A stretch of 64,000 nt of DNA from Anaerolineae bacterium. GTDB taxonomy: Bacteria; Chloroflexota; Anaerolineae; Aggregatilineales; Aggregatilineaceae. Position 1 is the first letter of the stretch. Each line of letters starts with the position of its first letter. Under the pieces are notes generated by a model. The model was given only the letters and a program-made list of their open reading frames with translations, had not been told where the DNA came from and did no database searches. Positions 7,276 to 60,381 of this stretch are shown piece by piece. The translations under genes and the position numbers were made by a program. The stretch covers positions 12,247-76,246 of the forward strand of contig JAHDLB010000022.1 in NCBI GenBank assembly GCA_018432315.1, in the 5' to 3' direction.

Positions 7276-7283
7276 GTGAACTT

Positions 7284-11881: not shown

Positions 11882-13031
11882 GGACCGTATCATCTATCTG
11901 GACAACGCTGCGACGACGTTTCCCAAACCCGAAGTGGTCTATCAAACGATGGACCACTTTTACCGAAATTTCGGAGGCAACGCTGGACGCGGTTCCAATC
12001 CGCTGGCTCGCAAAGCTGCTACTCTGGTCGAGGAAACGCGATCGTTACTTAGGTCGTGGCTTGACGCTCCCGAAGTCATCTTCCAACCATCTGCAACGAT
12101 TGCACTCAATACGGCAATCCTGGGAGCGGGTTTGAGTGCGGGGGACATCGTGTATGTTTCCCCGTTTGAGCATAACTCGGTTTTGCGGCCACTTGAGCAT
12201 CTTCGCCAGACAGTAGGCATTCAAATAGAAGTGCTGCCATTTGATAGGCAGACGCTCGAATGCAAGCTCGACGAAGTGAAAGCCCTGTTTCGGCTCGATC
12301 CCCCGGCGATGGTGTGCGTGTCCTTGGTGAGTAATGTGCTTGGTCTGATACTGCCAGTTGGCAAGATTTGCCAGTTTGCCAAGCAGATTTCTTCTCGTGC
12401 AATAACCATCGTTGACGGTGCGCAGGCCGCAGGGTTGATCCCAGTTGATATGGTTCACGTAGATGCCCTGGTTTTTTCTGGACATAAATCGTTGTACGGA
12501 CCCTACGGGATCGCGGGAATTACATTTGGTACAGACTGGCGGCCCTCCCCAGTCATTCGAGGCGGAACTGGTACCCAGTCTGAAAGCATCGATATGCCAC
12601 TCGACGGGCCATCTCGATTTGAGGCTGGAAGTCAGAATATAGCGGCTGTTGCGGGCTTAAAAGCGGCACTTGAGTGGCTAGGCCAAACCGGGCAAGATAG
12701 CATTTGTAGGCATTCGCAGGAACTTTCCGCTCTGCTCTATGAGACGCTAGTTCAGTACCCCCGTGTCGTAGTTCATTTTCCTGCTGATCACAAGAAACAT
12801 TTTGGATCAATCTCATTTTCGGTTGATGGGGTTATGCCCCAAGCAGTTGAAACGGCGCTGGGGTCCAGCGGCGTTGCTGTTCGAGCAGGGCTTCATTGTG
12901 CGCCTTGGTGCCATGAGTTTATCGGCACAATGGCAGCGGGTGGAACGACGAGAGTGAGCGTTGGCCATTTCACCGACGAAAACGACGTCGCTGAATTTGC
13001 TACCAAGTTCGATAAGATAGTTCGTGGATAA
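11871..13031 (+). CDS. sspA: Cysteine desulfurase, class V aminotransferase (SspA-type)
   Basis: 386 aa with IIYLDNAATTFPKP at the N-terminus, the PLP-lysine motif VFSGHKSLYGPYG and the active-site Cys in RAGLHCAPW. Confidence 0.85.
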   Translation: MTTEDRIIYLDNAATTFPKPEVVYQTMDHFYRNFGGNAGRGSNPLARKAATLVEETRSLLRSWLDAPEVIFQPSATIALNTAILGAGLSAGDIVYVSPFEHNSVLRPLEHLRQTVGIQIEVLPFDRQTLECKLDEVKALFRLDPPAMVCVSLVSNVLGLILPVGKICQFAKQISSRAITIVDGAQAAGLIPVDMVHVDALVFSGHKSLYGPYGIAGITFGTDWRPSPVIRGGTGTQSESIDMPLDGPSRFEAGSQNIAAVAGLKAALEWLGQTGQDSICRHSQELSALLYETLVQYPRVVVHFPADHKKHFGSISFSVDGVMPQAVETALGSSGVAVRAGLHCAPWCHEFIGTMAAGGTTRVSVGHFTDENDVAEFATKFDKIVRG

Positions 13032-13099
13032 CATCCCCATCCGTTAGGCGTTGGAAATGAAATGTACGTGAATAATGAACACAGTGACTGACCCGGGTG

Positions 13100-14086
13100 T
13101 CATACTCGACGGAACACTTCAGAATATCGAGGGATTGAATGTTCGTATCTGGTTGGCAAAAAGGCTATCAACCACCGCATCAGAGTTTGCCAGGCTCGGT
13201 CACCGTCAAAACTTGTCATTTGAGCACATGGTAACGACGCCAACAATTGCACAACGGCGCCGAAGCGCTGAGATTCACTCACATAATCATCCACTTGCTT
13301 GATAATTGGAAACTGCAACAACAGCGTTCCCACGTATTGTTCAAATTGCTCGCCACTCAACCCGGTTGGGACATCTAGGAAGGATAGATCAGATAAAGCT
13401 GACTCTCTGGCTGCAGCAGTGAGATCATCAAACCTGCCCTGGTAGGCCACGAATAGTTTTTCAGGTGACCTCAAGGTTGGAATCCAGGCTTCACGCTTCA
13501 TTCGAGGGTACGACGTTTCAGATTCAGTTTGAGGCAGATTCTGCTGTGTGTTGACGGAGGGACGGAAATCGGCTGAACGCAGTGCATCTGCCATCGTTTT
13601 AGCCCGGTCAAAAACATCTTGATCGATCTCAACACAACCCTCAAGCAATTCCCGCTCGAATTTGATCAACATGTCATCATGAGCAGTAGCGATCAGCAGT
13701 TCTAGGTTTGGGTTTCTCGTCCAGCCCAGTGCAGTTAATGTCAGATTTGCTGATCCAATCAAGCAGTGACGATCTGCTCGATAGTACTTCGCGTGCAGAT
13801 CGTTTCTTAACCAAAGCGATGACTGGTTCCGCGTTTGCAGGAAGGGCCAAATCTCAATATCGCTCACACCAGAGGCAATTTCCTCTGGCCGCCAGCGCGT
13901 AACGCATGTTATGCTTACGTCTTTAGCCGCACTTTCGAGCAGGCGCTTCAGCGCCTGCAACTTGATGAATGGCGCGACAAGTAGTAATTCGCACTTCGCT
14001 TGTTGACAAAGCGTTTCCAACTGATAGCCAGGGTTGTTCACTGATTTCCGTTCCGCCTCAGCACATCTTTTAGTCGACGCCCCCAA
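13100..14086 (-). CDS. Single-HKD phospholipase-D-family nuclease
   Basis: HKD motif LHAKYYRADRHCLIGSANLT (HxKx4Dx5GSxN). The likely true start is GTG at 14041, which overlaps the upstream TGA as GTGA. Confidence 0.75.
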   Translation of the reverse strand: MGASTKRCAEAERKSVNNPGYQLETLCQQAKCELLLVAPFIKLQALKRLLESAAKDVSITCVTRWRPEEIASGVSDIEIWPFLQTRNQSSLWLRNDLHAKYYRADRHCLIGSANLTLTALGWTRNPNLELLIATAHDDMLIKFERELLEGCVEIDQDVFDRAKTMADALRSADFRPSVNTQQNLPQTESETSYPRMKREAWIPTLRSPEKLFVAYQGRFDDLTAAARESALSDLSFLDVPTGLSGEQFEQYVGTLLLQFPIIKQVDDYVSESQRFGAVVQLLASLPCAQMTSFDGDRAWQTLMRWLIAFLPTRYEHSIPRYSEVFRRV

Positions 14087-15810
14087 CCACTACGTGCGTC
14101 TTCCGTTCTTTCTCGGACCCTTCGAGACGGTTGGTTTTCTTCAAATTCCGCCCAAGCTATAAGTAGCAACTTCATTGTCTCACCAGCATCAAACGGTTTT
14201 TGTCCTTGTGGCGTAACCGACTTGCCATTGCTCGATGGCTCAATCAGATCCATTACTCGCGCATAGATAGGATGATTAGAGTTGATTATTATGTTGGCAA
14301 CGTTGCCTTCGTTTTTGATTGCAAAGAACGAGTGATCATCTATCTCTGCCGACGAAAAAACATAGTGTATGCCACAATCAATTGTTATGGCATGAAGATT
14401 GTCTTCACTATCGGATTGAGCACCCAGGCTACTATGTCGATTTGATATAGGCTGCCCGTCGGCTTTTTGCAGTAGTTGAGGCTGAAGGTATTCGCCCATT
14501 TCCAACTCGTCGTGCGGGGAACTCTCGTGTCCTGTCTCTTTTTCTCCTGGTAGTTCCTGGAGAGATGGCTGGACGTTCGTTTGTGTGCTGGTCGCGTGTG
14601 GCTCGTGGTTCTGGTCGCGTTTCCTCAAATGGTATACGTACACAGGCGCGAGCGTAGTGTGTGCTGGGGGTTCTTCAGGTTCAGCCAATATGTGTTGCTG
14701 CCTAAGAGTTTGAAGTTGTTCGTATATATCACGATGATGAACTGCTACACCGAGCCGCCTGGTCAACGCCCCCTGCAGTTCTCCGATAGTGGCGGTTTCA
14801 CGTTGACCCAGAAACTCTAGTATTGTTTCCCGAATCTGATCGGGTGTGACGGCGGGTTTTTCCTTTGTTCTGGGGTCTTGCCCATCCATCTTCTTCAGTC
14901 GAAACATTAAGACGGGATGTTGAGGTGTACTCGATGCGTGTGGTTCTGGGCGTGCGAGAAAGCCCGCTTTATGAAGCCCTCTCAGCGCTTGGTTTATTTG
15001 GGTGGGATCAATCCTGTGATCATATATCCGTGCTAACTCGTCTACCAAATCCCGCGACGTGATCATCTCAGAATTCTCAAGAATCCTCATGATACATTCC
15101 GACAGATCCGATTCCAGATGGGGTAACTGTAGCTCGACGTTTTCGTGTTCTTCTGCTGCTGGTTTTGCAGCAAGTTCGTATATGAATATTGGCTGTCGAG
15201 TCGTGCTGTCTGGGTGCTCATGAGGTTCTATGACCACCTTTTTCCCCCTCAGAATTTTCAGGTGTTCATAGATGGTAAGCCCGGTGGACCGAATCCCTTG
15301 CACAGCGAGTGCGTCCACAAGCTCGGCTACTGTGGCAGATCGAAGCTCCTGAAGAGCATTGATGATGTGTTGCTCAAGATCGTATTGTTGTGGCAGTTGT
15401 CTAACCTGAGGTTTTTCGTTTGCCGCTTCGTGTCTGTTGTCAACATCTGTGTCGATTAACTTTGGGCGACTGGCATCAACAATTGGTTCTCCAGCATCGG
15501 CTTGAGCATTGGATTCGATATCCATCCAGTGCATGTGCGAGGCATTATCATAGTAGAAGTGGGTGCGCCCTTCTCGATGAAGCACGCTGTTCACGAGCGA
15601 TTTGTCTACTACGACTCCTCGGTTGGCTAACCCAACAGTGATCTGCCGACTCATGCGTGGCTGTCCGTCAGCCAGTATTTGCCGAATGTGATTCAGAATT
15701 TCCAGGCGCACGGTAAGATCGTCGTCTGCTTGGCGGTTGCCCCATGAGCGCAACAATTTCATACTTGATGTCACTCCTGCCGCATGAAATCGCGGGCTAT
15801 TTTCCCCCAA
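14038..15810 (-). CDS. Protein with four tandem winged-helix-like modules and a C-terminal domain paralogous to the C-terminus of the adjacent GHKL ATPase
   Basis: Three clear repeats share the pattern I..xL....xT..ELvdxL......IYExLxxLRxxxxxxEPxx(8-10)P[IV]x[IMV][YF]xL (aa 143-213, 233-305, 322-395), plus a more divergent first copy (aa 33-88). The C-terminal 130 aa align with aa 478-606 of ORF 15771..17591. The likely true start is ATG 15762, preceded by AGGAG. Confidence 0.6.
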   Translation of the reverse strand: MGENSPRFHAAGVTSSMKLLRSWGNRQADDDLTVRLEILNHIRQILADGQPRMSRQITVGLANRGVVVDKSLVNSVLHREGRTHFYYDNASHMHWMDIESNAQADAGEPIVDASRPKLIDTDVDNRHEAANEKPQVRQLPQQYDLEQHIINALQELRSATVAELVDALAVQGIRSTGLTIYEHLKILRGKKVVIEPHEHPDSTTRQPIFIYELAAKPAAEEHENVELQLPHLESDLSECIMRILENSEMITSRDLVDELARIYDHRIDPTQINQALRGLHKAGFLARPEPHASSTPQHPVLMFRLKKMDGQDPRTKEKPAVTPDQIRETILEFLGQRETATIGELQGALTRRLGVAVHHRDIYEQLQTLRQQHILAEPEEPPAHTTLAPVYVYHLRKRDQNHEPHATSTQTNVQPSLQELPGEKETGHESSPHDELEMGEYLQPQLLQKADGQPISNRHSSLGAQSDSEDNLHAITIDCGIHYVFSSAEIDDHSFFAIKNEGNVANIIINSNHPIYARVMDLIEPSSNGKSVTPQGQKPFDAGETMKLLLIAWAEFEENQPSRRVRERTEDARSGWGRRLKDVLRRNGNQ

Positions 15811-17591
15811 TCGGTACGTGCGTCTTGTGTACGTTCACGCGGGACTCCGTCGAGTTGTTCATCTTCATAGCGTGCCCAGGCTAGCAGTAACAGTTTCAGC
15901 CCCTTGCTAGCTCTTTGAAGACGAGACTGCAATGTCTCTATATCTTCTTCATCCTCAATGTCACCGGTTTCGAGCACTTCCAGTAACTGCTCGTAGGCGG
16001 GGTGATTGACATTAAGCAGTACCGTGATTACGCCGCCTTTTGGCCGAACTGTGAAAAATGCTGAACCTTCGAGATCTGCCACATCGAAAATGTACTTGAG
16101 ACCACTGTCAATAGTGAATGCGGCAAGCTCCTCAGCGTCTTTCTCTGGAATACCACTTGCAACTAGTGTTTCCTGGACCTGTATCTTGCGCTCCTGAACG
16201 GGCAGTGTTCTTTCTTCTTCATCGCTATGGCTGACATGCCCTTCATCACGCCGCCGCTGGGTGGCTTCTGTAGCAATCGCTGGCGGGCTTGACGGATCAG
16301 AGTGACGAGATCGCCGCTCTCGCTCACCACTTTTTTGGGCTGCAATCTGCCGACGCATCATGCGGATGTTCTTGTCGATTCGTTGCGTTATCTCATATAG
16401 CGGCAAGCGGGGGTCCTCGGCAGCTTCCAGTTCAGCTATAGTATCTTCAAACACTTGGTCTTCGGTTGCAATCATCCGTGCAATATCAGAGAAGTTTCTA
16501 GCAGACTGCTTGTTGTTCGTGACGCCGAAGAGATCATCCAGTGCCGGCGGAAAATCGATTTCGACCCCCCACCAGCGTTCGCGAGGATCGTAAGGGACAG
16601 CCCATGCTGCATCCAGCTCGAGTTCTCGATCTGCTCGCATGAGCGAAACTCCTACGTTTCTTTTGGCATGTTTGCCGTGTGGCTTGCTGCCCGCCTGAGC
16701 GCCGCTTCGGGCCTCTTCGGTCGCGATAGAAAACCGGATAATCACTTCTTGCTGTTCTCCACGAAAGCTGACAATGGGTCTGACTTCGTAGCTTTCTGGT
16801 GCTGGCCACGGCATGAACATAGGCTGCTTGTCAAAGGGGGCTGGACAGGAGGTTTCGGCCATCAGGTAACAGGGATCATTAGGGTGTGCGGCCTTCTCCG
16901 TCAATATGTTTGTGGGATTGTCCACATCAAAAGTTTTGAAAAGAATGGTTGTTCTGCCCTGAGTAATGAAGCGACGGTATATGCGTCCCACCAGTTCTTC
17001 GGAGTTATGGATGATTGCTCGTGATGTTTTCCAAAGGCAGCGATCGATCCCTGACCAGACAACAAGTGTTCCAGCGCTTTCAAAGGAGTTTGTTACGTCG
17101 AGCCATATGTTCGGAATATCGCGATAAGCTGGTTTGGGAATGCGGGTCAGAGTTCCTTCCTCGATTTCATCTAGATCCAGATAGGTATGTAGCAGCGTGT
17201 CGGGCCCGTTCGTCCAAGACCACACATCGACGCGGCGACACTGGGAAATCGATGAGGAAGGCAAGCCCATACCGAAACGGCCAATTCCCGTATGGTTCCT
17301 GGGATCTAGATACAGACCATTTCCAAACTGAAGCGCCATGTGCAGCACTTCAGCATCCATTCCACTGCCGTTGTCGAGAACCGCTATTCGATCAATACGA
17401 GAGCGTGAACGTTGGTCGACGATATCTGTTTTGTCTCCACATAAAATCTCTACACGTGAGGCTTCTGCCTGGATGGCGTTATCTACCAGTTCAGCTAGGG
17501 CGTATGCCGCGTTTTTGTAGCCACTGTCCCGCATGGCTTTGATGGCTAGGCTGGCGGGGATAATGTCGTGTTCTTCTGCTTGATTTGTCAT
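15771..17591 (-). CDS. GHKL-superfamily (MORC/HATPase_c_3-like) ATPase
   Basis: 606 aa with N-box ALAELVDNAIQA, G1 box VLDNGSGMD and G2 box GRFGMGLPSS. The start lies 3 nt after the helicase stop. Confidence 0.75.
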   Translation of the reverse strand: MTNQAEEHDIIPASLAIKAMRDSGYKNAAYALAELVDNAIQAEASRVEILCGDKTDIVDQRSRSRIDRIAVLDNGSGMDAEVLHMALQFGNGLYLDPRNHTGIGRFGMGLPSSSISQCRRVDVWSWTNGPDTLLHTYLDLDEIEEGTLTRIPKPAYRDIPNIWLDVTNSFESAGTLVVWSGIDRCLWKTSRAIIHNSEELVGRIYRRFITQGRTTILFKTFDVDNPTNILTEKAAHPNDPCYLMAETSCPAPFDKQPMFMPWPAPESYEVRPIVSFRGEQQEVIIRFSIATEEARSGAQAGSKPHGKHAKRNVGVSLMRADRELELDAAWAVPYDPRERWWGVEIDFPPALDDLFGVTNNKQSARNFSDIARMIATEDQVFEDTIAELEAAEDPRLPLYEITQRIDKNIRMMRRQIAAQKSGERERRSRHSDPSSPPAIATEATQRRRDEGHVSHSDEEERTLPVQERKIQVQETLVASGIPEKDAEELAAFTIDSGLKYIFDVADLEGSAFFTVRPKGGVITVLLNVNHPAYEQLLEVLETGDIEDEEDIETLQSRLQRASKGLKLLLLAWARYEDEQLDGVPRERTQDARTDWGKIARDFMRQE

Positions 17592-17593
17592 GT

Positions 17594-19201
17594 TTAGTCT
17601 TCCCAGACGTCTTCCCAGTTGTAGAAAGCTTCGGCAAAACTCCCAAACCCAGGGAGTTGTTGATCAACGACTGTTACAATTTCTGCGGCTTCGTTCCCAC
17701 CTGCGCGTGTTCCGCGCATAGCGCGGCCTACCATCTGGCTGTAGAGCACCAACGATTTTGTTGGGCGTGCGATTAGAGCAGCACTCGTTCGGGGAGCATC
17801 AAACCCCGTAGTCAAAACACCATAATTGCAAAGCACTTTGGGAGTGTCTTCCGGATTCATATAGTCTGCGATGATGCGAGTTCTAGTGCTGGAAGGGGTG
17901 CTGCCTGTCACGGAATAAGCCTGAATGCCTCTGGCCTGAAGGATAGCCGCGATTAAATCCGCATGTTCGACAGTCGTCGCAAACAAAAGGATACGGCTGT
18001 GTTGTTTGACGAGGCTTTCAACTTCCAACACAATCCGGAGATTTCGTTGATCGTCAGCGGCTAGCTGCTTCAGAATGCTAGGTGGGATGTCCAACAACGT
18101 TTCTAGCTGTCTGAGATCGGCATCCGATAGTTCTAAGCCGCTATTGTGAAACAGCGGGCGGAAGCTCGCTCTAGCCAAATAACCTTCGTGAATAAGGTAT
18201 TCAACCGGGTTATCAAAACCAGCAACTTTCAGAGTTACTTTGCGTCTTGCAAAAAATCTGGATAGTTGCTCGTCTGCTTCAATATCTGCCCAAGTACGGC
18301 CCGGTGTAGCAGTTAGACCAAGTAACGCAGTGTGGGGAAACGGGATAACTAGAGAGTCCAAGACCAGTTGATAGGTTTCTGCTACAGCCATATGTGCTTC
18401 GTCGATAATCACGAGCGAACAGTGCTGACCGAGAGTACCGATTTTTCGAATGCTTTGCTTCAGTAAGTTATAGAGTTTGGCGAGACCTGCAACGACAATA
18501 CCGTCTTTGACCTGTGCTAAATCAAGTTCGTAGTCTCCCCAAAAACGGTGAACCGAGATGGATCTATCTCCAAGTTGTTTCCAGGTCCGTTCAAACTCGC
18601 TTGCCGCCTGTTCACACAACTCTTCGCTGTAAGCGAGCCAAACCACAACCGTTGGTTCTGTAGCGCGGAGATGATCGGAAATGATCGACATCGCCGTCCG
18701 CGTCTTACCCGATCCTGTGGGCATGTGCAGCATTACACGGTGCGGCGGTTCTGTTAGCTGAATCTTAATTTCCCTTGCGGCCTGACGTTGATGTACGAAC
18801 AGTCCATAAGAAGAATCGAGAACCGTTGTACTGGGCGGTTGATCAACCACTTCTTCACGCGGAATAGACAAACCAAAGAAGTCGAAAAGGATCTGTTCGC
18901 GCTCAGAACCATGACGAAAACGAGCCTGTCTTAATGCCGCGTAATTATCAGTGCCATCAAGCCCTAACACTATACGCAAGCTTTCAGCTTCTTTGGGTCG
19001 CAAAAAATCAAACAGGATCCTTCTATCCTCAGGGGATAATAACAAGCCTGCCCGTGTTCGCAGATTCACGACTAGGTTGCGCAACTCACTAGGTGACATT
19101 AGTTTCGGATCAAGATGCATCAATAGCCGCACAGCATCGCCACCTACGAGCTTTTGCAGCGTTTCATCATCGAGTCGGGACAGAAGATTATCAAAATCCA
19201 A
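17594..19201 (-). CDS. SF2 DEAH-box helicase (ResIII-type)
   Basis: 535 aa with motif I HMPTGSGKTRTA, motif II VIIDEAHMAV, motif III LTATPGR and motif VI QMVGRAMRG. It is the first gene of the four-gene minus-strand operon. Confidence 0.85.
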   Translation of the reverse strand: MDFDNLLSRLDDETLQKLVGGDAVRLLMHLDPKLMSPSELRNLVVNLRTRAGLLLSPEDRRILFDFLRPKEAESLRIVLGLDGTDNYAALRQARFRHGSEREQILFDFFGLSIPREEVVDQPPSTTVLDSSYGLFVHQRQAAREIKIQLTEPPHRVMLHMPTGSGKTRTAMSIISDHLRATEPTVVVWLAYSEELCEQAASEFERTWKQLGDRSISVHRFWGDYELDLAQVKDGIVVAGLAKLYNLLKQSIRKIGTLGQHCSLVIIDEAHMAVAETYQLVLDSLVIPFPHTALLGLTATPGRTWADIEADEQLSRFFARRKVTLKVAGFDNPVEYLIHEGYLARASFRPLFHNSGLELSDADLRQLETLLDIPPSILKQLAADDQRNLRIVLEVESLVKQHSRILLFATTVEHADLIAAILQARGIQAYSVTGSTPSSTRTRIIADYMNPEDTPKVLCNYGVLTTGFDAPRTSAALIARPTKSLVLYSQMVGRAMRGTRAGGNEAAEIVTVVDQQLPGFGSFAEAFYNWEDVWED

Positions 19202-19397
19202 AGTCTATATCCTTGTTCAACCTGACACTCCTATACTTTATATTACAACCAGGAATTTTTTGCCAGCTACTTAAATGAAAACTATGTGAATTCAAACGAG
19301 CGAGTTCGGAGTTTTGAATCATTTTGCTCGAAACTGTTCCGCGGGCTTCGTTACTGCGCATATCGCGCCACGCGCCACCCATCCTCGCTAGGACCAA

Positions 19398-19613
19398 TCG
19401 ATGGGTTAGGTGCGAGTTGTTCGCCACTGTCGCACGGCGCAGGGCCGTGTCCAGCCCTGTGGGCTGCTGCGACGAGTTTCTTCCTGGCTTGCGCCGGGGC
19501 GATTGATAAGGCTAATCGCCCCTCACCAGAAACTCGTGCAGGGCTACGCCGACACGTCCCTCCGACGCGCCGTGCGCAAAAGCGGGCGAACTCGCACCTT
19601 AAAAACCCATCGA
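19398..19613. other. Core of a highly structured non-coding element (nested long-range helices); candidate ncRNA or single-stranded-DNA structure
   Basis: The outer helix pairs 19398-19440 (TCGATGGGTTAGGTGCGAG...GCACGGCGC) with 19567-19613 (GCGCCGTGC...GGCGAACTCGCACC...AACCCATCGA). Inside it, 19471-19480 pairs with 19529-19538 and there is a hairpin at 19496-19522. More perfect stems lie at 19724-19749 and 19775-19792. Confidence 0.4.
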
Positions 19614-19963
19614 CCGAACTGGCCCGGCTACGGGCGGATTGCAAAGCTTCATGGCGCTGCGGTCTATCCGCAGCTGAAACCCTATCGAGCCGACGTCAGT
19701 TCCGAGATGAAAACTCCTCCGAAGTAACAAAGCAACCCCGCTTTGTTACGGGCATTTCCGATGGTCGTGGACTACTTGAGATCGATCTCAAGTGCCGGTA
19801 GGGCCTCTGAATGTGTACTGGATTCTCCGGTGTGTTCGCCGCACGCCGCCAGTTGCCACGTCCAGGCCGCAACCGGGAGTGATAGAGGAGCTTGAGCAAG
19901 TTCTAACCATCCCCGGATAGACATGCTTTCCAAAAGCCCTTCAATTCATCTCGGAGGTATTGC

Positions 19964-20641
19964 ATGTCCCAAACAACAACCATTCCGCAGGCAGTGTATA
20001 CCCGTTACCACGCCTGCTACAACAACGATACCTATCGCGCGTTTAGTCTTGGCCTCGCGAATGCGCTGGGCTTAGATGAACGTGTCGTGCGGGCAGAAAT
20101 GCACGATGAACATCACAACCGCATCATGAACCAACTGACTGATGCGGCGATGGAACTGGTCGGTGCGGAGTTCTATGCCGGAGCCGGAAAACGGCTGGGT
20201 AATGCGCTGGGCGCGCTCGATGAGCATACACCACTCCTGGTCAAGCACGCTATCAACCACCTCAACAACTTCGTAACCGGCGATGAACCCTGGGTTGCAC
20301 GACAAAAGATCGCCCATCTGGCGACGCTGTCACTGGCTGAACATGCCCGTCGTGCGCTGGTACAGACGCTGGATCATGCGGCACTGCTGCCGGGCTGGCG
20401 CGGCACAGCCCCGTACTACTGGCTGCGGGCCTGCTCGCTGCTGGTGCAGGCTGCCGAGATTGTCTTGCGCGATGATCCCAGCGAAAGCTACCTGGTCGAG
20501 AAGTTCAGCACTTGCCTTCAGTCTCTCACGATGGGTACCGGTGAGGTGGTTCGTTATGGCAATCCTTCCCTGGCAATCCAACGTTTTTATGAGCAGCTTA
20601 CCGCCACGCAAGACGGGAGGCATCCCGATGTCTCAAAATGA
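19964..20641 (+). CDS. Hypothetical protein
   Basis: 225-aa ORF with GGAGG 8 nt upstream and plausible amino-acid composition. It is the first gene after the structured leader. Confidence 0.55.
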   Translation: MSQTTTIPQAVYTRYHACYNNDTYRAFSLGLANALGLDERVVRAEMHDEHHNRIMNQLTDAAMELVGAEFYAGAGKRLGNALGALDEHTPLLVKHAINHLNNFVTGDEPWVARQKIAHLATLSLAEHARRALVQTLDHAALLPGWRGTAPYYWLRACSLLVQAAEIVLRDDPSESYLVEKFSTCLQSLTMGTGEVVRYGNPSLAIQRFYEQLTATQDGRHPDVSK

Positions 20642-21779: not shown

Positions 21780-24700
21780 GTGTGCGCACGTCTCACCTCT
21801 ATCGAATTGGGAGGATACTATCCGGCCCCACGGGATCAACTCCCCGCTATTGCTTCGTTATTCGCGCCAGCATCCAACGGCGGGCGTCTGCTCGATCCGT
21901 GCGCGGGTGAAGGCGAAGCGCTGCATTATCTGGCTGAAGCGTGGCAGCTGACGCCCTACGCCAATGAACTCGACACCGACCGCGCCGCCGCGTGCCAGAC
22001 ATTGTTTGGCCCGATTCAGGCCGTGCAGGGAGATCTCTACACTTTGCGCGCTTCGTTGGGCAGCTTCAACGCGGTGTGGTGCAATCCGCCGTACACCTGG
22101 GATGTAACCAACAAGGACGACAAGCGGCGTGAGCTTGGAATGCTCAAGCACAGCTGGAAATGGCTGGCTCCTGGCGGGTATATGGCATGGGTGGTTTATG
22201 GACACCACGTGACCCCGGATGCGGCGGCATTTCTGGCCAAACACTGCAAGACCGTCGATGTGTGGCGGCTGCCAGGGCTGCATCTGGGCGAGTATGTCCA
22301 TGTTGTGGTGGTCGCGCAGGAAGGCATACCACCCGATGAACCGGCCCAGTTCGCACAGCGTATTCTGCAAGACGCGGCCAATCCCCGTGAGCTGACCGTG
22401 CAAGACACACCACTCTACACCTTCCCACAACCACGCACCACCCGCCGCTTTGTGTTCGCTCCGAAAGTCATCACACCGGAACTTGCGTTACAGGCGGTTC
22501 AGGCGGATGGCGCGCAGTTTGGCGCAGGTTTTCAACGGCTGCTGGAGCCACCCCCACCGGTCGAGAACGTGCGTCCGGTGGTGCGGCCACGCGGTGGACA
22601 GTTGGCCCTGGTGTTAGCGGCGGGCTTGTTCAACGGCATTGTCGTGCAGACCGACGAAGGTCGCGCAGCCGTGCGCAGTACGGTCGAGCCGGTCGAGCAA
22701 CTGGTCGAAGGTGGCGAGATTGATGAGGCCGACGAAACCACAACCGAACGTGAGGTATATCGCACACGCCCGCAGGTAACGATCACGCTGCTGAACGAGC
22801 AGGGCGAGATCACCGACATGAGCGGCGATGCGGCACTGGTGGACTTTATCGGGCGGCATAAAACGGCTTTGCTAGGTTATCTGGATGAGCATTTTTCGCC
22901 CCTCTATGACTTCGAGTACAGCCAACTCGCGCCCATCCTGGATCGAGTGCGGCTCAAGGGTAACCGGCTCTATGAGACGCAAAAACACGTCACCGCAGCA
23001 GCATACACGGCCCTGCAACAGCGCAAAGGCGTCATCGTCGTGGGCGAGCCGGGTGTCGGCAAGACGGTGGTTGGTGCAACCCTGGCGATTGCCTTACGTC
23101 CGCACATGAGACCGGACCAGGTCGCGATCGTGATGGCACCGCCTCATCTGACCGGCAAATGGCAGCGCGAGGTCGAGATGGTCGCCCGTTCGGTGGGCAC
23201 GCGCGTTCACGCGAAGGTGCTCAAGAATGTGGACGACGTGCGGGCGTTCATGGACGCCAATCTGCCCATGACACTCAAGATCGGCATCATCCCGCGCGAG
23301 ATGGCGAAGCTCGGCGAGGGCTGGGAACCGGCGGTCCATTGGCGCACAGTGCGCACGGCACGCTGGGGGTATGGCGAACCGCGACCGGAAAACCTGACGG
23401 GTGACCGCATTCTGACGACGAAAGTTCCCCTCTGCCCGAACTGCAACGCGACCATCACCCGCAATAAAAACGGTGAGGCGATCATCGCCGATGAGAAGTG
23501 GCTGGGACGCGCACCGCAGAAGTGCCCGGCTTGCGGTGGGGCGTTGTGGCAGCATTCGCGCACGTTTTCGGCTCCCAAGCCCGGTGAGAAGTACCCCAAA
23601 CGCAACCCGCGTATGCCGTTGGCTGACTACATCGCCACTGTGTTCCCGAATCGCGTGTACCTGTACGAGTGCGACGAAATCCACGAAGCGAAGTCAACCA
23701 GCACCGACCAGGGCGCGGCCATGATGAAACTGGCGCAGACCGCTGAAAAGGTTGTTGGGCTGACCGGCACACTCTACGGCGGCGTTGCGTCGTCGCTGTA
23801 CGGGTTGCAGTTCGTCTTCAATCCGCGTGTGCGGCTGAACTACCCCTGGGGCGTCAAAGGCCAGGCCGGGTGGGTGCGCGACATGGGAGCGCTGGAACGG
23901 ATTGTAGAGTACCGCCCGGAGTACGACAAGGGCGGGCACTACACCGGCAAACGGCGCGTTGAGCACAAACCGAAGGAAGCGCCGGGCTGCTCCCCGCTCC
24001 TGGTGCGCGAAATCATCGATCACACGGTTTTTGTCGGGTTGCAAGACATCGGGCGCGATATGCCGGAGTTTGAAGAAATCCCGGTCCCTATCCCGATGGA
24101 TGCCGACATGGAGCTGCACTACAACCGCGCCAAGGACAAGATGAACACCTACCTGTTCCAGTGCCGGATGGAAGGCGACGCGAGTTTCCTCGGACGTTAC
24201 CTGCAAACACTGCTGGCCTGGCCGACTGCACCGTTCCGGAGCGAGAAGGTGATCCACAAACGCCGCTTTGACCGTGAGAGCGATCAGTTCATCGAAATCC
24301 CGGTGCATGACATGCCGGGTTTGAGCGAAGACCGGCTGTATCCCAAAGAAGAATGGCTGGTCGAACTGGTGCGTGATGAGCTGGCCCAGGGCCGCAACGT
24401 TGGCGTGTTTCTGCGTCAGACAGGCACCAGAGATATACAGCCGCGCATCGAACGCATCATCCGCGAGCATATTCCTGACGCACGACCGTATGTACTCAAG
24501 GGCAGCGTGGCTCCGGAACGCCGCGAGAGCCTGGTGCAGCAGCAGCTGGATGCAGGCATCAATGTGCTGGTGTGTAATCCTCGCTTGGTCCAGACCGGCC
24601 TCGACCTGGTGGCTTTCCCGACGTTGGTGTTCCTGGAACCGGATTACAGCTTGTTCGTGATGGGACAGGCGTCCCGGCGGGCGTGGCGTATCATCCAGGA

Positions 24701-25268
24701 CCAGCCGTGCAAAACGTTCTATCCTCACTATCTGGACACGATGGAACACCAGGCAGTCGAACTCATCGGGCGCAAGCAGCAGGCGGCCAATCTGCTCTAC
24801 GGCGATACGAGCGCGGGCGGATTGAGTGAACTCACCGGTGCGAATGGCGGCGGTGGCGACCTCATGGCCGAGTTGGCGAAAGCTATCGACCACGACGAAA
24901 GTGTGACGGACCTGCGTGACCTGTTTGCGCGACACGCCCAACAAGCCGATCCGACCGACAGCGCGTGGTTTGTGGCCGAACCCGAACCGGCGCACGACAC
25001 CGAAGGCGAAGACGATCTCATTCGTTTTGGCCTCGAAGAACTCGGCGGCGTTGTGGTAGAGATGGCGGAGAGCGACGAGCGCGTAACACGACCGGCTCCC
25101 AGTCCCGCCGCACTGCCACCGCGCACGAAACGGCGGCGGCGTAAGGTCAGCATCCTCGATGTGCCCGAAACCGATGAAACGCTGATTCAGGTCCCGGATT
25201 GGCCCAAACGCCAGCGGGAACAGGTGCCACTCAAACCGGCTGAACCCCAACAGCTTGCCCTGTTCTAA
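21780..25268 (+). CDS. Fusion of an N6-adenine-type DNA methyltransferase with an SNF2/SF2 helicase; probable anti-restriction/establishment protein
   Basis: 1162 aa with SAM motif LLDPCAGEGEA and catalytic VWCNPPYTW. The helicase part has Walker A VVGEPGVGKT, a DEIH box (YECDEIHEAK) and motif VI QASRRAWRIIQ. There is an internal zinc ribbon CPNC...CPACGG. Confidence 0.75.
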   Translation: MCARLTSIELGGYYPAPRDQLPAIASLFAPASNGGRLLDPCAGEGEALHYLAEAWQLTPYANELDTDRAAACQTLFGPIQAVQGDLYTLRASLGSFNAVWCNPPYTWDVTNKDDKRRELGMLKHSWKWLAPGGYMAWVVYGHHVTPDAAAFLAKHCKTVDVWRLPGLHLGEYVHVVVVAQEGIPPDEPAQFAQRILQDAANPRELTVQDTPLYTFPQPRTTRRFVFAPKVITPELALQAVQADGAQFGAGFQRLLEPPPPVENVRPVVRPRGGQLALVLAAGLFNGIVVQTDEGRAAVRSTVEPVEQLVEGGEIDEADETTTEREVYRTRPQVTITLLNEQGEITDMSGDAALVDFIGRHKTALLGYLDEHFSPLYDFEYSQLAPILDRVRLKGNRLYETQKHVTAAAYTALQQRKGVIVVGEPGVGKTVVGATLAIALRPHMRPDQVAIVMAPPHLTGKWQREVEMVARSVGTRVHAKVLKNVDDVRAFMDANLPMTLKIGIIPREMAKLGEGWEPAVHWRTVRTARWGYGEPRPENLTGDRILTTKVPLCPNCNATITRNKNGEAIIADEKWLGRAPQKCPACGGALWQHSRTFSAPKPGEKYPKRNPRMPLADYIATVFPNRVYLYECDEIHEAKSTSTDQGAAMMKLAQTAEKVVGLTGTLYGGVASSLYGLQFVFNPRVRLNYPWGVKGQAGWVRDMGALERIVEYRPEYDKGGHYTGKRRVEHKPKEAPGCSPLLVREIIDHTVFVGLQDIGRDMPEFEEIPVPIPMDADMELHYNRAKDKMNTYLFQCRMEGDASFLGRYLQTLLAWPTAPFRSEKVIHKRRFDRESDQFIEIPVHDMPGLSEDRLYPKEEWLVELVRDELAQGRNVGVFLRQTGTRDIQPRIERIIREHIPDARPYVLKGSVAPERRESLVQQQLDAGINVLVCNPRLVQTGLDLVAFPTLVFLEPDYSLFVMGQASRRAWRIIQDQPCKTFYPHYLDTMEHQAVELIGRKQQAANLLYGDTSAGGLSELTGANGGGGDLMAELAKAIDHDESVTDLRDLFARHAQQADPTDSAWFVAEPEPAHDTEGEDDLIRFGLEELGGVVVEMAESDERVTRPAPSPAALPPRTKRRRRKVSILDVPETDETLIQVPDWPKRQREQVPLKPAEPQQLALF

Positions 25269-25279
25269 GGCGGTGCATC

Positions 25280-26203
25280 ATGCATCCCGATACACAGGCG
25301 TTTCTCGAAGCCCTGTTTGCCCCGTGCGAGCAGGGCTTTTTGACCTTCACTGCCATCCACCCCGATGGGCAGCACCCAACACCTTCGCGCCATGTCCCGG
25401 TCGGTGATCTGGCCTGTCTTACGCGCACTGTGGAGCGTCTTACGGAAGCAAACCAGCAGGGTTGGGGCGCATACGTGGCGATAGCGACCCGCAAGACCAA
25501 CCTCGGACGCTGGCGGCGCGGCGGGCTAGACGACCTGCTCGCGCTGCCTGCGTTGTTCGTGGACGTGGATGATCCCTCACCGGATACACTGGCACGCCTG
25601 CAAACAGTGCGTCCAACACCATCCTGCATCACGTTCACCACGGGAGGATTTCACGCTTATTGGTGGCTGCGAACTTCGCTCACTGACTTCGATCTTGCAC
25701 GGCATTTGCTGCACGCGCTGGCCGCCAAATTGGGTGGAGACAGATTGTCACCCGCCCAGTCGCTTCGCTTGCCTCAAACACGAAATACAAAACCCCAGCG
25801 TGGTAATGCATTGTGCAAAATCGTTGTCTTGCGTGATGTGCGTTACACACTGGCTGACTTCGATCTGCCCAGCGAACATCCGCCGCTGCGACGTTGCTGC
25901 ACTCGACCATCGCCAGTTGCTAGATATGCTCGATCCAATCGCGCTTTGAATCCCGCCCTGATCGCGGCAGTAGCAGACAACCTTATCGAGCAGGGTTATC
26001 GCCGATCTGGAGATTGGTTGAGTGGTCCCTGCCTCTTTCCGCAAAATCATCATCATGCGGATACACACACCTCGTTTGGCTTCAATGTTCGCACGGGTTA
26101 CGGCAATTGTTTTCGCTGCAACTCAATCCTGCTCAAGGATATCTGCCAGACGCTGATGATCCACCCGTCAGATTACGGCGGATTATTCACGCAAGACAGC
26201 TAA
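25280..26203 (+). CDS. Archaeo-eukaryotic-type primase-polymerase (prim-pol) with a C-terminal zinc-binding module
   Basis: 307 aa with AEP-like motifs GWGAYVAIATR, LFVDVDD (DxD) and TTGGFHAYWWL. The C-terminal segment CLFPQNHHHADTH...GNCFRC is the putative zinc module. Confidence 0.6.
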   Translation: MHPDTQAFLEALFAPCEQGFLTFTAIHPDGQHPTPSRHVPVGDLACLTRTVERLTEANQQGWGAYVAIATRKTNLGRWRRGGLDDLLALPALFVDVDDPSPDTLARLQTVRPTPSCITFTTGGFHAYWWLRTSLTDFDLARHLLHALAAKLGGDRLSPAQSLRLPQTRNTKPQRGNALCKIVVLRDVRYTLADFDLPSEHPPLRRCCTRPSPVARYARSNRALNPALIAAVADNLIEQGYRRSGDWLSGPCLFPQNHHHADTHTSFGFNVRTGYGNCFRCNSILLKDICQTLMIHPSDYGGLFTQDS

Positions 26204-26933: not shown

Positions 26934-27146
26934 ATGACGAACGAAACCAACCCGACTCCGCGCGTTTTTGTCATCGGTGCCACCCGCATCAAAGAAGATG
27001 CTTCGATGGCTGGCCGGAGTAATGAGGAAATCCGCGATCTTCTCAAACCCACGTATCCCGAAGTGGCTCATGCCACCATCCGTGAAACTGAGCAAGACGG
27101 ACAAAAAACGGTGTCCTTCCTCGTTCGGCCCGGATATAAAGGTTAA
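26934..27146 (+). CDS. Small ubiquitin-like (beta-grasp-sized) protein ending in a free glycine (PRTRC protein C-like)
   Basis: 70 aa ending ...LVRPGYKG-stop. It is linked to E2-like and ThiF/E1-like genes. Confidence 0.55.
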   Translation: MTNETNPTPRVFVIGATRIKEDASMAGRSNEEIRDLLKPTYPEVAHATIRETEQDGQKTVSFLVRPGYKG

Positions 27147-27151
27147 ATTCC

Positions 27152-27403
27152 GTGTTGACCTTGACACACGACGATCTGTGCGCGTGTCTGGCCGCTATGC
27201 CACCGGTGGAACTGCTGGGGATGACCTTGCTCAGGCAGGGAAGTCCCCAGCTTTATCCGGCGGATGTGCCGCGTGACACGCTGCGCGAAGCGGTCACGGA
27301 AATTGTGGCCTACACCGGGCGCTGTACGGCGGCTGCGCACCGTCTGCGCAATCTGACGCCCATTCCCCTTCTTCACATCAGTATTCCGGAATACGCACTA
27401 TGA
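27152..27403 (+). CDS. Hypothetical protein
   Basis: 83-aa ORF packed between the Ubl gene and the next gene; its stop overlaps the next start. Confidence 0.4.
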   Translation: MLTLTHDDLCACLAAMPPVELLGMTLLRQGSPQLYPADVPRDTLREAVTEIVAYTGRCTAAAHRLRNLTPIPLLHISIPEYAL

Positions 27404-60208: not shown

Positions 60209-60218
60209 ATACTGGCGC

Positions 60219-60347: not shown

Positions 60348-60381
60348 TATATGCGGGACAATAATGCAGAGGTGAAGTGAA

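Follow-up and report, generated by a model that had tools for sequence, protein, structure and literature searches.

The window, by which we mean the whole 64,000-nucleotide stretch of DNA analyzed, carries a structured noncoding region directly upstream of an operon on the plus strand (Table 1). The operon begins with a gene for a protein that gave no informative match in our searches, continues with genes for 161-aa and 191-aa proteins, and then encodes a methyltransferase-helicase and a primase-like protein. Relatives share this synteny. Every gene listed from 19.9 to 31.4 kb lies on the plus strand, and the element also encodes a DnaG-like protein and a DUF3987 protein. After ssb comes a very structured noncoding region at 31.39-31.87 kb, followed by an RHH-T4CP operon. 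The first-pass annotation had placed the noncoding stretch at the left end of a mobile element, which was not borne out. The upstream flank holds a different defense system in all relatives, so position 19398 is the border between variable defense cargo and conserved backbone, not a demonstrated element end or attachment site.

Table 1. Hairpins, putative regulatory motifs and neighboring genes (window coordinates)
Feature	Coordinates	Strand	Description
D1	19398-19613	-	Branched hairpin, ~215 nt; from inverted repeats, folding, covariation and homologs
-10-like element	19426-19434	-	Putative extended -10, TGC + GACAGT, 16 nt after the -35
-35-like element	19448-19453	-	Putative -35, TGGACA (plus strand TGTCCA); spans the base of Pa and the main stem
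Pa hairpin	19452-19466	.	CAGCCC-loop-GGGCTG; stem sequence invariant, loop variable
Pb hairpin	19471-19538	.	Stem covaries freely
3'-arm block	19595-19613	+	CACCTTAAAAACCCATCGA; conserved, carries a bulged CTTAA
D2	19614-19963	+	Probable structured 5' leader of the operon; covarying hairpins include 19656-19674, 19724-19749 and 19774-19793
Anti-Shine-Dalgarno block	19716-19722	+	Putative; CCTCCGA, CCTCC core conserved in both subfamilies
Shine-Dalgarno of first gene	19951-19957	+	TCGGAGG; conserved in all loci
First operon gene	19964-20641	+	225-aa protein, no known domain; ATG at 19964
DUF6094 methyltransferase-helicase	21780-25268	+	
RepB-primase-like protein	25280-26203	+	Weak match, E = 0.0013, below the Pfam cut-off
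D1'	30796-31006	-	Paralogous branched hairpin directly upstream of ssb; from structure scan and sequence
ssb	31034-31387	+	117 aa; Pfam PF00436, E = 4e-16

The helices listed in the first-pass annotation are all present. An inverted-repeat search recovered long repeats at 19408-19440/19567-19599 and 19398-19407/19604-19613, a helix at 19472-19481/19528-19537, a hairpin stem at 19496-19504/19514-19522, a stem at 19724-19733/19740-19749, and a palindrome at 19774-19793; a small hairpin at 19656-19674 was read straight from the sequence. The stretch is noncoding, as had been supposed: mechanically called open reading frames show no conservation, and single-base indels distinguish the homologous loci. 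The folding energy of positions 19380-19630 is -141.5 kcal/mol for the plus strand (z = -10.2) and -143.2 for the minus strand (z = -9.2), a stability that none of 200 shuffles attained, and a scan of the whole window found only three strongly structured places, this being one. A structured signal at 27.1 kb falls in coding sequence and was set aside. An intrinsic terminator was set aside as well, since no T-run follows either arm.

The region is kept in about 30 related Anaerolineae loci, with similarity that sets in sharply at 19398 and runs to about 19891 at ~80% identity. It has two parts, which we call D1 and D2, and the helices covary in both. No Rfam family matches the stretch: Rfam 15 gave no match at gathering score anywhere in the window, and in E-value mode the sole match over 19150-20050 was a 14-bit chance hit, while 30700-31960 (the paralogous hairpin D1' and an oriT-like region) gave spurious hairpin hits only. 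A blastn search of the region (word size 11) against 72,556 plasmids and 5,426 E. coli genomes gave no match.

D1 consists of an outer stem, internal loops, and a three-way junction with hairpins Pa, Pb, and Pc, and the identical architecture occurs in 23 homologs. These and the nine D1' homologs come from two diverged subfamilies, and the structure is under selection in both D1 and D1'. In D1, compensatory change affects 31 pairs (187 cells changed on both sides), counts that are conservative because the MAFFT alignments underlying the structural comparison misalign parts of the outer stem between subfamilies. The covariation score is 0.242, versus 0.080 in shuffles (0 of 500 reach 0.242) and 0.04-0.06 when the structure is slid. 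The six pairs of the Pa stem are identical in 23/23 sequences, and a seventh pair occurs only in the nine with a longer loop. Pb has compensatory changes in 10 of 15 pairs, with none broken in the covarying part. At its apex is a conserved motif, GGCTTGCGCCG (19486-19496) with CTCA (19522-19525), which in the window is split by an extra hairpin (19496-19522) specific to type A. This motif, GGCTTGYGCCGCTNCGCTCA, is the most conserved sequence of D1.

The paralog D1' matches D1 in architecture, in its apical motif (GGCTTGTGCCGCTGCGCTCA, 30894-30913), and in the promoter geometry described below. It is conserved in relatives, where nine homologs are kept upstream of ssb homologs, and covariation is found in 22 of its 46 pairs (score 0.325 versus 0.127). 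Its folding energies under DNA parameters are -70.2 for the plus strand (z = -5.5) and -76.0 for the minus strand (z = -8.0). Of the D1' regions that we folded, nearly all favor the minus strand; L061 is equal and the truncated L058 slightly favors the plus strand. In L071-L074, the gene upstream of D1' lies on the minus strand.

D2 behaves as plus-strand RNA. In the RNAalifold consensus, 42 of 75 pairs show compensatory changes, 95.4% of cells are paired, the covariation score is 0.375 versus 0.193, and the energy is -76.0 kcal/mol on the plus strand versus -44.4 on the minus strand. Only this consensus analysis separates the strands, as single-sequence minimum free energies (-155 versus -152) do not. 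Pair types include 181 G-U and 16 A-C cells among 1,277, with G-U in 36 of 75 columns, and on the basis of these many plus-strand G-U pairs D2 looks like a structured mRNA leader of the operon with an anti-Shine-Dalgarno block. RNAalifold pairs CCTCC of this block with GGAGG of the first gene's ribosome-binding site (columns 160-164 with 480-484); as these pairs carry no compensatory changes, they provide no covariation proof of pairing. A perfect 11-nt complement, 19701-19711/19945-19955, is not kept in L006, L029, and L030 and was therefore dropped in favor of the shorter pairing. D2 thus has the character of a cis-regulatory mRNA leader that touches the ribosome-binding site, counted from a predicted transcription start, and may exert leader-mediated translational control. 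The first-pass annotation had offered three readings of the stretch, namely a large structured noncoding RNA, a single-stranded-DNA (ssDNA) promoter or priming structure of the Frpo/ssi type, and part of a recombination site. The RNA reading holds for 19614-19963 only, and there as the 5' leader of an operon rather than as a free-standing RNA.

D1 differs from D2 in its pairs. Its inner helices contain 1094 Watson-Crick, 6 G-T, and 4 A-C cells (~1,100 in all), and G-T was ever seen in 3 of 60 pair columns; compared in the same sequences, the pair types of D1 and D2 differ at p = 4e-43 (Fisher). Watson-Crick-only pairs next to a G-U-rich leader are the pattern one would expect of a D1 that functions as DNA and a D2 that functions as plus-strand RNA. 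Under DNA parameters, 21 of 23 D1 copies are more stable as the minus strand. Fold energies are -79 to -82 kcal/mol for the window's copy and -64 to -94 for the set of homologs. D1 is a large, stable, imperfect stem-loop of the kind made by one DNA strand, and we propose that it forms on the single-stranded minus (template) strand.

The same contrast bears on the reading of D1 and D2 as one plus-strand structured RNA of ~550 nt, either a cis-regulatory leader or a noncoding RNA, with its promoter upstream of 19398. We consider this unlikely. Although D2 is clearly RNA-like, although conserved unpaired blocks and multihelix junctions are typical of functional RNAs, and although D1' is surrounded by genes of the same strand and could be cotranscribed with them, G-U pairs are almost absent from D1 and D1' yet free in D2 of the same molecules, and D1 folds equally well on both strands under RNA parameters. 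A single RNA would also lack an Rfam match and a conserved upstream promoter, and it would leave the minus-strand promoter motif described next unexplained. No conserved promoter was found upstream of D1, since homology does not extend past the hairpin base into the flank, which is unrelated cargo. 6S RNA is a long, mostly double-stranded hairpin whose central bubble mimics an open promoter and which binds sigma-70 holoenzyme. Unlike D1, it is an RNA, uses G-U pairs, and sequesters polymerase, and no 6S model matches here. A retron-like reading from first principles, with D1 as msd-like and D2 as msr-like, was set aside because the order of the parts is the reverse of a retron's and no reverse-transcriptase domain was found among the proteins scanned.

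We scanned both strands with a sigma-70-like consensus, on the assumption that sigma-factor specificity in Anaerolineae resembles that of E. coli. In 32 of 32 sequences, the minus strand carries the best match, and its structural position does not vary. Out of 13, this match scores 8-10 for D1 and reaches 11 for D1', against a background per 210 nt of 0.047 for a score of at least 9 and 0.003 for at least 10; plus-strand matches score 4-8 at scattered positions. The -35-like TGGACA is present in 22 of 23 D1 homologs (TGGACC in L034). For the -10, most type-B relatives have (T/G)GC + TAnnnT with a 17-nt spacer (TGC in 6 of 13 aligned), and the L004/L010 group has a degenerate CAGACT. Both this hexamer and the window's GACAGT are without the first T, which counts against a promoter, and the window's own copy is the weaker for it. 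Most of the nine D1' copies have TTGACn, a spacer of 14-15 nt, and TGcTAnnnT. In the window's D1' these are TTGACG (reverse complement of 30850-30855) and TATGCT preceded by TGC (reverse complement of 30830-30835). Exceptions are L060, with a -10 of CAAGAT, and the window/L055 pair and L067, where the scan preferred other -35 hexamers. The short spacing in D1' also counts against the promoter reading.

The geometry of the motif is constant within the hairpin. The -35 is fully paired in the 20 minus-strand D1 folds examined, and fully or almost fully paired across D1 and D1', while the -10 hexamer sits in a conserved internal loop. A2 and T6 of the -10 occupy the same structural position in every copy, although the scan itself required both bases. 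In the otherwise covarying stem, the invariant columns are the A that corresponds to T6 and the GC that represents the TG element's G together with the base after it. From the -10, the hairpin base is 27-30 nt away in D1 copies and 33-34 nt away in D1' copies. Within the folded hairpin, the motif points toward the downstream genes, and in all 23 D1 copies the fold places a -35 and a -10 of the form (TGc)nAnnnT, 16-17 nt apart, on the nontemplate arm in that direction. From the -10 position and the pairing of the arms, we predict that the transcript would start at about 19586-19590, just upstream of the 3'-arm block. A simple promoter model has no need of the apical motif or of the invariant Pa hairpin, which counts against it.

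On duplex DNA, the same motif would face left, and it could be an ordinary double-stranded promoter reading into the cargo, with the repeat as a regulator-binding or insulating element. The adjacent upstream gene does lie on the minus strand in the window and most relatives, but it lies on the plus strand in L005 and L015, and, both in the window and in the ThiF-linked (backbone) relatives, a leftward transcript from D1' would run antisense to a gene on the plus strand. Such a promoter also gives no reason for ~85 covarying base pairs or a pre-melted -10, and we regard this explanation as very unlikely.

A promoter that works from a folded single strand is known from conjugative plasmids. Frpo1 and Frpo2 of F and ssi1-3 of ColIb-P9 are class 1 ssDNA promoters, in which a large imperfect stem-loop on the transferred (template) strand rebuilds -35 and -10 elements (PMC9849209, PMC11541004). 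A leading region has several such promoters, including one in front of ssb. They are inactive as duplex and drive early, transient expression of establishment and anti-defense genes (PMC9849209, PMC11541004). In F, ssb is preceded by Frpo2 and ygeA by Frpo1 (PMC9849209), and in pESBL ssDNA promoters lie upstream of a methylase (PMC12672017). D1 and D1' are alike in context, one copy lying upstream of ssb and the other upstream of the methyltransferase-helicase/primase operon. We used F as a control and found a template-strand bias for Frpo1 and Frpo2 (-84 versus -76), confirmed the gene orientation, and found TGGACA on the 3' arm, like in D1. The control was partial, as a simple hexamer scan did not recover the published Frpo -10, because of bulges.

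There are also differences. D1 has no sequence similarity to Frpo/ssi and is thus a functional analog in our reading, not a sequence homolog. It belongs to a Chloroflexota integrative element rather than an enterobacterial plasmid, its function is predicted, it is branched, with two extra hairpins and the apical motif upstream of the -35 where Frpo has an A+T-rich UP element, and it is followed by a 375-nt structured RNA leader, unlike Frpo. Lack of similarity has a precedent in the class 2/3 ssDNA promoters of pESBL and F, which are large stem-loops with reconstituted -35 and -10 elements, unrelated in sequence to Frpo and found by homology-independent hairpin mining, upstream of M.EcoGIX methylase and klcA homologs (PMC12672017). 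The mechanism has thus arisen with unrelated sequences. Like D1, they precede methyltransferase or anti-restriction operons, but they were validated by 5'-RACE and RNA-seq in transconjugants, whereas D1 is known from covariation, pair types, and motif geometry.

Taken together, we think D1 and D1' are probably ssDNA promoters of the Frpo/ssi kind, which is the best supported of the three first-pass readings for 19398-19613. This rests on Watson-Crick-only covariation, the better DNA fold of the template strand, a conserved -35 and extended -10 on the correct hairpin arm with the -10 pre-melted, and the paralog directly upstream of ssb. The sister hairpin at ssb suggests, therefore, that this plasmid-type trick also occurs in Chloroflexota. 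Most likely, D1 is active as a promoter only while the conjugative element is single-stranded in a new host.

Single-strand origins such as ssoA, ssoT, and ssoU of rolling-circle plasmids and sso1 of ICEBs1 are likewise strand-specific folded ssDNA, 150-300 nt long, with conserved unpaired motifs. Host RNA polymerase recognizes these sites, whose conserved motifs include RS-B and CS-6, and makes a short primer RNA. Compared with D1, their output is a primer and not an mRNA, and they are not placed as operon promoters. A second type, the complementary-strand origin of G4 and ssiA/ssiB of RSF1010, consists of hairpins recognized by primase (DnaG, RepB') with GCGNNAGC or CCGAAGG-type mini-hairpins (PMC13037366). 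These sites are 40-140 nt long and without promoter boxes, unlike D1; they are alike in that the element here has a RepB-primase-like protein, though a weak match, and that the mini-hairpin consensus is partly kept.

D1 and D1' could accordingly be ssi/sso sites where a primase, namely the element's RepB'-like or DnaG-like enzyme or the host primosome, starts complementary-strand synthesis, rather than mRNA promoters. DNA-type pairs and the minus-strand preference would suit this, as would the RepB-primase-like, DnaG-like, and DUF3987 proteins. The apical motif, read from the alignments, often gives GCGNNAGC on the minus strand, the DNA mini-hairpin motif of the G4 origin and RSF1010 ssiA (PMC13037366), and Frpo itself also primes DNA synthesis, according to an account citing Masai and Arai 1997 (PMC12672017). 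However, the consensus is present in about two-thirds of D1 copies (~17 of 25) and few D1' copies (2 of 9), two same-orientation sites 11 kb apart are not needed for priming, and the positions directly upstream of the operon and ssb, the sigma-70-like geometry, and the RNA-type leader all fit transcription. Priming as the sole role is improbable in our estimation.

With respect to transfer functions, ssb, the methyltransferase-helicase gene, and the primase-like gene lie on one strand, as would suit a leading region if the minus strand were the T-strand. The layout of operon and structured region matches oriT-adjacent transfer operons in which the T-strand is the template, a rule of orientation that we checked on F. 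Pfam, NCBIfam, and PHROGs gave nothing for a relaxase among the large unknown proteins, and the 562-aa protein after T4CP had no PDB sequence match and a confident model (pLDDT 88) without a fold match. As no relaxase or oriT was recognized, we infer the transferred strand only indirectly.

The noncoding region could instead be a DNA-processing site, either an oriT with nic and relaxase-binding hairpins or part of a serine-recombinase attachment site. It sits at a border of variable and conserved DNA, oriT regions are noncoding and rich in inverted repeats, and the L014 break falls exactly at the CACCT|TAA bulge. But a second homologous copy lies 11 kb off, inside the backbone and upstream of ssb, and the hairpin cluster at 31388-31870 beside the RHH-T4CP genes is a better oriT candidate than D1. 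Known relaxase or serine-integrase sites do not resemble freely covarying stems of ~100 bp. Every upstream flank consists of defense genes and not of a common target, and the gene for the large serine recombinase is 42 kb away. We judge this explanation highly improbable, and the recombination-site part of it, the last of the first-pass readings, found no support.

The break in L014 is an IS110-like insertion or a rearrangement that disrupts the hairpin at the conserved bulge.

Returning to the ssDNA-promoter reading, we propose the following mechanism. During conjugation or rolling-circle replication, the minus strand, on which every plus-strand gene from 19.9 to 31.4 kb is templated, would be single-stranded and would fold into the ~215-nt branched hairpin. 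Its 3' arm would supply the nontemplate strand of a promoter, with TGGACA, 16-17 paired positions, and an extended -10, which reads TGC-GACAGT in the window and TGC-TAnnnT in many relatives and has its key bases in the conserved internal loop. The 5' arm would serve as template, so that host RNA polymerase could start near 19586-19590 and leave the hairpin base rightward. It would first produce the ~375-nt structured leader with its putative anti-Shine-Dalgarno block and then transcribe the genes for the 225-aa protein, the methyltransferase-helicase, the primase-like protein, and others. Once the complementary strand is made, the hairpin would be gone and the promoter sequence would face the other way; expression would therefore be transient. 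The same RNA could prime complementary-strand synthesis, as described for Frpo.

To our knowledge, the IncF and IncI plasmids of enterobacteria are the only elements in which ssDNA promoters have been demonstrated. Others have been predicted from similarity or promoter boxes. The family described here, which is unrelated in sequence and belongs to integrative conjugative elements of Anaerolineae (Chloroflexota), appears to follow the same logic. It offers a comparative signature for such elements: Watson-Crick-only compensatory changes, a template-strand stability bias, an invariant -11A/-7T in an internal loop, and contrast with an adjoining G-U-rich RNA leader. If the reading is true, early expression from incoming ssDNA would be an ancient or repeatedly invented feature of conjugation, the signature would show how to look for such promoters in uncultured phyla, and it would allow leading regions and transferred strands to be oriented without a known relaxase.

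A broader reading would make the locus a switch that responds to arrival in a new host, well beyond Proteobacteria. Pa and the apical motif may dock a primase, SSB, or activator, from element or host, on ssDNA; one structure may couple complementary-strand priming with timed transcription; and the 375-nt leader may be a new regulatory RNA that senses a ligand or protein and so gates the translation of an anti-defense operon. We hold this combination, taken jointly, to be doubtful.

The apical motif is common to D1, D1', and two unrelated lower-GC contigs. A scan of viral contigs gave 14 hits to it, most of which look like chance occurrences in coding DNA. Hairpin context was found only in L043 and L054, where the promoter scan did not discriminate between strands and the Pb apical motif is the one seen in D1'.

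The intergenic stretch at 19202-19963 separates a minus-strand gene set on its left from plus-strand genes on its right (table below). The plus-strand run starts with proteins of 225, 161, and 191 aa, all without known domains, followed by a 1162-aa DUF6094 methyltransferase-helicase and a weak RepB-primase-like protein; further along are a PRTRC-type Prok-E2/ThiF pair, ssb, an RHH protein, and a VirD4-type coupling protein. VirB4-like ATPase and topoisomerase genes are on the minus strand, and the integrase of the element is probably the 678-aa large serine recombinase. Based on the coupling protein, VirB4-like ATPase, serine recombinase, and other genes in the window, this is an integrative conjugative element. 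Homologs of the 225-aa protein occur in metagenome-assembled genomes of Anaerolineae and other Chloroflexota, with gene order kept downstream of it. There were no tRNA genes, and the intergenic region resembled nothing among 72,556 plasmids or 5,426 E. coli genomes. An Rfam scan, proposed in the first-pass annotation, gave no family match at gathering score across the window or in permissive mode for the region.

Every helix listed in that annotation is present in the sequence. Positions 19380-19630 fold with -141.5 kcal/mol (plus strand, z -10.2) and -143.2 kcal/mol (minus strand, z -9.2), more stably than any of 200 shuffles. Similarity to related loci begins abruptly at 19398 (TCGATGGG) and extends to ~19891 at ~80% identity. 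Almost every locus has its most stable 230-nt fold 570 to 630 nt upstream of the start codon, even in the absence of blastn similarity. Two sequence subfamilies, types A and B, share a single architecture: a branched hairpin, D1, and a series of hairpins, D2, before the 225-aa gene. D2 segments of the two types can be aligned with each other.

Features of the structured regions and their surroundings (window positions)
Feature	Position	Strand	Description
dnd-type cluster	within 5503-19201		Window's own defense slot: PAPS reductase, DUF4007, 1222-aa protein, cysteine desulfurase
Second defense set	within 5503-19201	minus	Window's own slot: PLD / winged-helix / HATPase / ResIII helicase
ResIII-type helicase gene	17594-19201	minus	Left neighbor of intergenic stretch
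D1	19398-19613		Long outer stem with internal loops, leading to three-way junction with Pa, Pb, Pc
Pa			Hairpin, invariant stem CAGCCC/GGGCTG
Pb			Hairpin, stem freely covarying, apical motif conserved
Pc			Short hairpin
-10	reverse complement of 19426-19431	minus	Putative D1 promoter motif
-35	reverse complement of 19448-19453	minus	Putative D1 promoter motif
Mini-hairpin	19486-19495 and 30894-30903	minus	Small GGC-TTGC-GCC hairpin, reads GGCGCAAGCC
D2	19614-19963		Covarying hairpins in series, conserved single-stranded blocks between
Plus-strand gene run	from 19964	plus	Right of intergenic stretch
PRTRC-type cassette	26934-29670		Small ubiquitin-like ORF, Prok-E2_D protein, ThiF-family protein; within putative leading region
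Apical motif of D1'	30894-30913		GGCTTGTGCCGCTGCGCTCA, same motif as D1
Hairpin cluster	31388-31870		Nested and tandem, non-coding; between ssb and RHH / 218-aa / coupling-protein genes
562-aa protein	35839-37527		Directly after coupling protein
DUF3987 protein, DnaG-like zinc-ribbon/Toprim protein, 678-aa large serine recombinase	58577-63827		Right part of window

Covariation in related elements, another check proposed earlier, showed that the helices of both D1 and D2 are conserved and covary. Across 23 D1 sequences, 89.9% of cells (one base pair in one aligned sequence) were paired, with double-sided changes at 31 pairs (187 cells). The D1 covariation score was 0.242, compared to 0.080 for shuffled controls (0/500 as high) and 0.04 to 0.06 with slid partners. 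For D2, 95.4% of cells were paired, 42 of 75 pairs were compensatory, and the score was 0.375 (0.193 shuffled, 0.04 to 0.07 with slid partners).

The two parts differ in the kind of pairing, which we compared using the well-aligned inner helices of D1 and 75 pair columns of D2. D1 had 1094 Watson-Crick, 6 G-T, and 4 A-C cells, whereas D2 had 1096 Watson-Crick, 181 G-U, and 16 A-C cells. G-U ever appeared in 3/60 columns of D1 and 36/75 of D2, and A-C in 3/60 and 13/75, respectively; the difference in G-U use was highly significant (Fisher p = 4e-43). Because both parts belong to the same molecules, neither host temperature nor GC content can explain this contrast. The D2 consensus fold reached -76.0 kcal/mol on the plus strand versus -44.4 kcal/mol on the minus strand, and with RNA parameters both strands of D1 folded equally well. 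The simplest reading of these alignments is that D2 acts as plus-strand RNA, while D1 acts as DNA or has to pair on both strands.

We scanned the whole window for unusually stable folds and found three places: D1, 30761-31020, and 31481-31940. A structured signal at ~27.1 kb was discarded, as it falls inside coding sequence in the PRTRC-type cassette region. The second place holds a paralogous hairpin, D1' (~30796-31006), with the three-way-junction architecture of D1. D1' ends ~30 nt upstream of a gene (31034-31387) encoding SSB (PF00436, E = 4e-16), and hairpins of this type also precede ssb homologs (58 to 91% identity) in other Chloroflexota elements. Among nine D1' sequences, 22/46 pairs were compensatory (score 0.325 versus 0.127 shuffled, 0/500), and, like D1, D1' has nearly no variable G-T pairs. 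In the D1 lineage as in the D1' lineage, Pb occurs in both its type A and its type B form (L071).

Both hairpins show a strand bias. With DNA energy parameters, the minus strand was more stable in 21/23 D1 copies (mean difference, 2.8 kcal/mol) and in nearly all D1' regions folded. In 32/32 D1 and D1' sequences, the minus strand carried the best sigma-70-like match, always at one structural position on the 3' arm of its hairpin. In D1, the -35 is TGGACA (TGGACC in L034), the spacer is 16 to 17 nt, and the -10 is (TGc)TAnnnT in most type-B copies and GACAGT, GATACT, or CACACT in type A; one group has CAGACT. D1' has TTGACn, a 14- to 15-nt spacer, and TGcTAnnnT. Out of 13, these matches scored 8 to 10 for D1 and as much as 11 for D1'; the best plus-strand matches, which were scattered in position, scored 4 to 8. 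The background rate within the element, per strand and 210 nt, is 0.047 matches scoring at least 9 and 0.003 scoring at least 10. When the minus strand is folded, all or nearly all bases of the -35 are paired, and the -10 falls in an asymmetric internal loop that is conserved, which usually leaves the -11A equivalent unpaired. The -10 is a constant distance from the hairpin base, and an A and a GC (the latter being the G of the extended TG plus the base after it) are invariant columns amid the freely covarying stem.

This geometry would make the 5' arm the template and the motif-bearing 3' arm the non-template strand, so polymerase would head toward higher coordinates, exiting via the hairpin base into D2 and then the 225-aa gene for D1, and into ssb for D1'. 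Transcription is predicted to start at ~19586-19590, which would make D2 a leader of ~375 nt. The motif would face the opposite way in duplex DNA.

Single-stranded-DNA promoters are known from plasmid leading regions. In F, the non-coding Frpo, as single-stranded DNA, forms a stem-loop in which -10 and -35 boxes are reconstituted; Frpo2 is upstream of ssb and Frpo1 upstream of ygeA, early expression in transconjugants needs both, and conversion to double-stranded DNA is the off-switch (PMC9849209). Leading regions are enriched in anti-defense genes, methylases, and SSBs, all oriented with the transferred strand as template (PMC11541004). On pESBL, six large hairpins are such promoters, three of them unrelated to Frpo by sequence, including one upstream of a methylase (PMC12672017). 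In the F record, we found methylase, antirestriction, ssb, psiB, and ygeA-type genes all directed toward oriT. The template strands of Frpo1 and Frpo2 fold better (-84 versus -76 kcal/mol), with TGGACA on the 3' arm; a simple hexamer scan did not recover their -10. The Chloroflexota elements are thus like Frpo-type promoters in logic and context but unlike them in sequence, and have an added branched upstream module and long RNA leader.

The first-pass annotation had offered three readings: a structured non-coding RNA, a Frpo/ssi-type single-stranded-DNA promoter or priming structure, or part of the recombination site. The promoter reading is best for D1, and the structured RNA reading holds for D2, as an mRNA leader. 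We lean toward D1 being a Frpo-like single-stranded-DNA promoter, possibly also a priming site, and D2 is best explained as a structured leader made by D1, with a possible anti-Shine-Dalgarno switch. D1 would extend this kind of promoter to a distant phylum, with unusually clear comparative evidence.

D1 and D1' may have a combined or alternative priming role. The promoter model leaves the apical motif and the invariant Pa hairpin unexplained, and the element encodes primase-like proteins. On the minus strand, the apical motif often reads GCGNNAGC, a DNA mini-hairpin motif known from primase sites (PMC13037366), and GGCGCAAGCC fits this consensus of very stable mini-hairpins (G4 origin, RSF1010 ssiA). 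The match is kept in about two thirds of D1 copies but in few D1' copies.

Within D2, at 19706-19727, a conserved GATG has AGG/GAGG before it and the CCTCC block after it. It starts a 6-codon mini-ORF in the window (MKTPPK, then stop) and longer, proline-rich or serine-rich ORFs in relatives, and may encode a leader peptide. The CCTCC reading frame is not the same in the two subfamilies, which favors a nucleotide-level, anti-Shine-Dalgarno role for this block.

The earlier proposal that D1 marks the left end of the element was not confirmed. The flank upstream of D1 varies by lineage and holds a defense system in every related locus; thus, 19398 marks the boundary between a variable defense-cargo slot and the conserved backbone. 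In L004-L030, this slot carries SNF2 helicases, HsdM, DndB, an AbiEii-like ATPase, a NERD-Mrr helicase, DUF499, or an MrfA-like helicase. A comparable slot, following ssb, contains DndB, Druantia DruA, SNF2/PLD helicases, or integrases in elements that are more distant.

That the minus strand is the one transferred is suggested by four indirect lines: the shared plus-strand orientation of all genes listed at 19.9-31.4 kb, the DNA-folding bias, the promoter geometry, and the start of the RHH-coupling-protein operon after the very structured non-coding 31388-31870, which resembles oriT-proximal transfer operons. This cluster includes perfect 18-nt arms (31601-31618 / 31669-31686) and folds as DNA with -149.8 kcal/mol (plus strand, z -13) and -141.5 kcal/mol (minus strand, z -8.4), a bias opposite to that of D1 and D1'. 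The cluster is a candidate origin of transfer. Neither a relaxase nor oriT was found, and family searches of the large proteins other than the 562-aa one were uninformative. The 562-aa protein, conserved in Anaerolineae and distantly in Rubrobacter, had no match in Pfam, NCBIfam, PHROGs, PDB sequences, or PDB folds. Its confident model (pLDDT 88, pTM 0.82) is beta-rich in the N-terminal half and helical in the C-terminal half, and the protein may represent an undescribed relaxase family.

Parts of these modules also appear in other settings. The apical motif, GGCT(T/G)GCGCCGCT(C/T)CGCTCA, tips long hairpins in two lower-GC IMG/VR contigs classed as viral (L043 661-680 and L054 367-386), which suggests that the module reaches beyond Chloroflexota; the remaining 12 matches, in coding DNA, look like chance. 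In L072-L074, the D1'-ssb unit adjoins a Tn7 TnsA-like gene, so it also travels in transposon contexts. An Anaerolineaceae contig (L059 1709-2857) has two ssb genes after a TniQ-like gene, with repeated TTACG/TTACAC-type units upstream of the ssb homolog in place of the hairpin. Finally, L014 (1311-3305) carries two tandem D1 copies. The type-B copy breaks off precisely at the conserved CACCT|TAA bulge. Next come, in order, a 418-aa ORF (1778-3034; by eye, a putative IS110-family transposase), a full-length type-A D1 plus part of D2, and the remainder of the type-B element.
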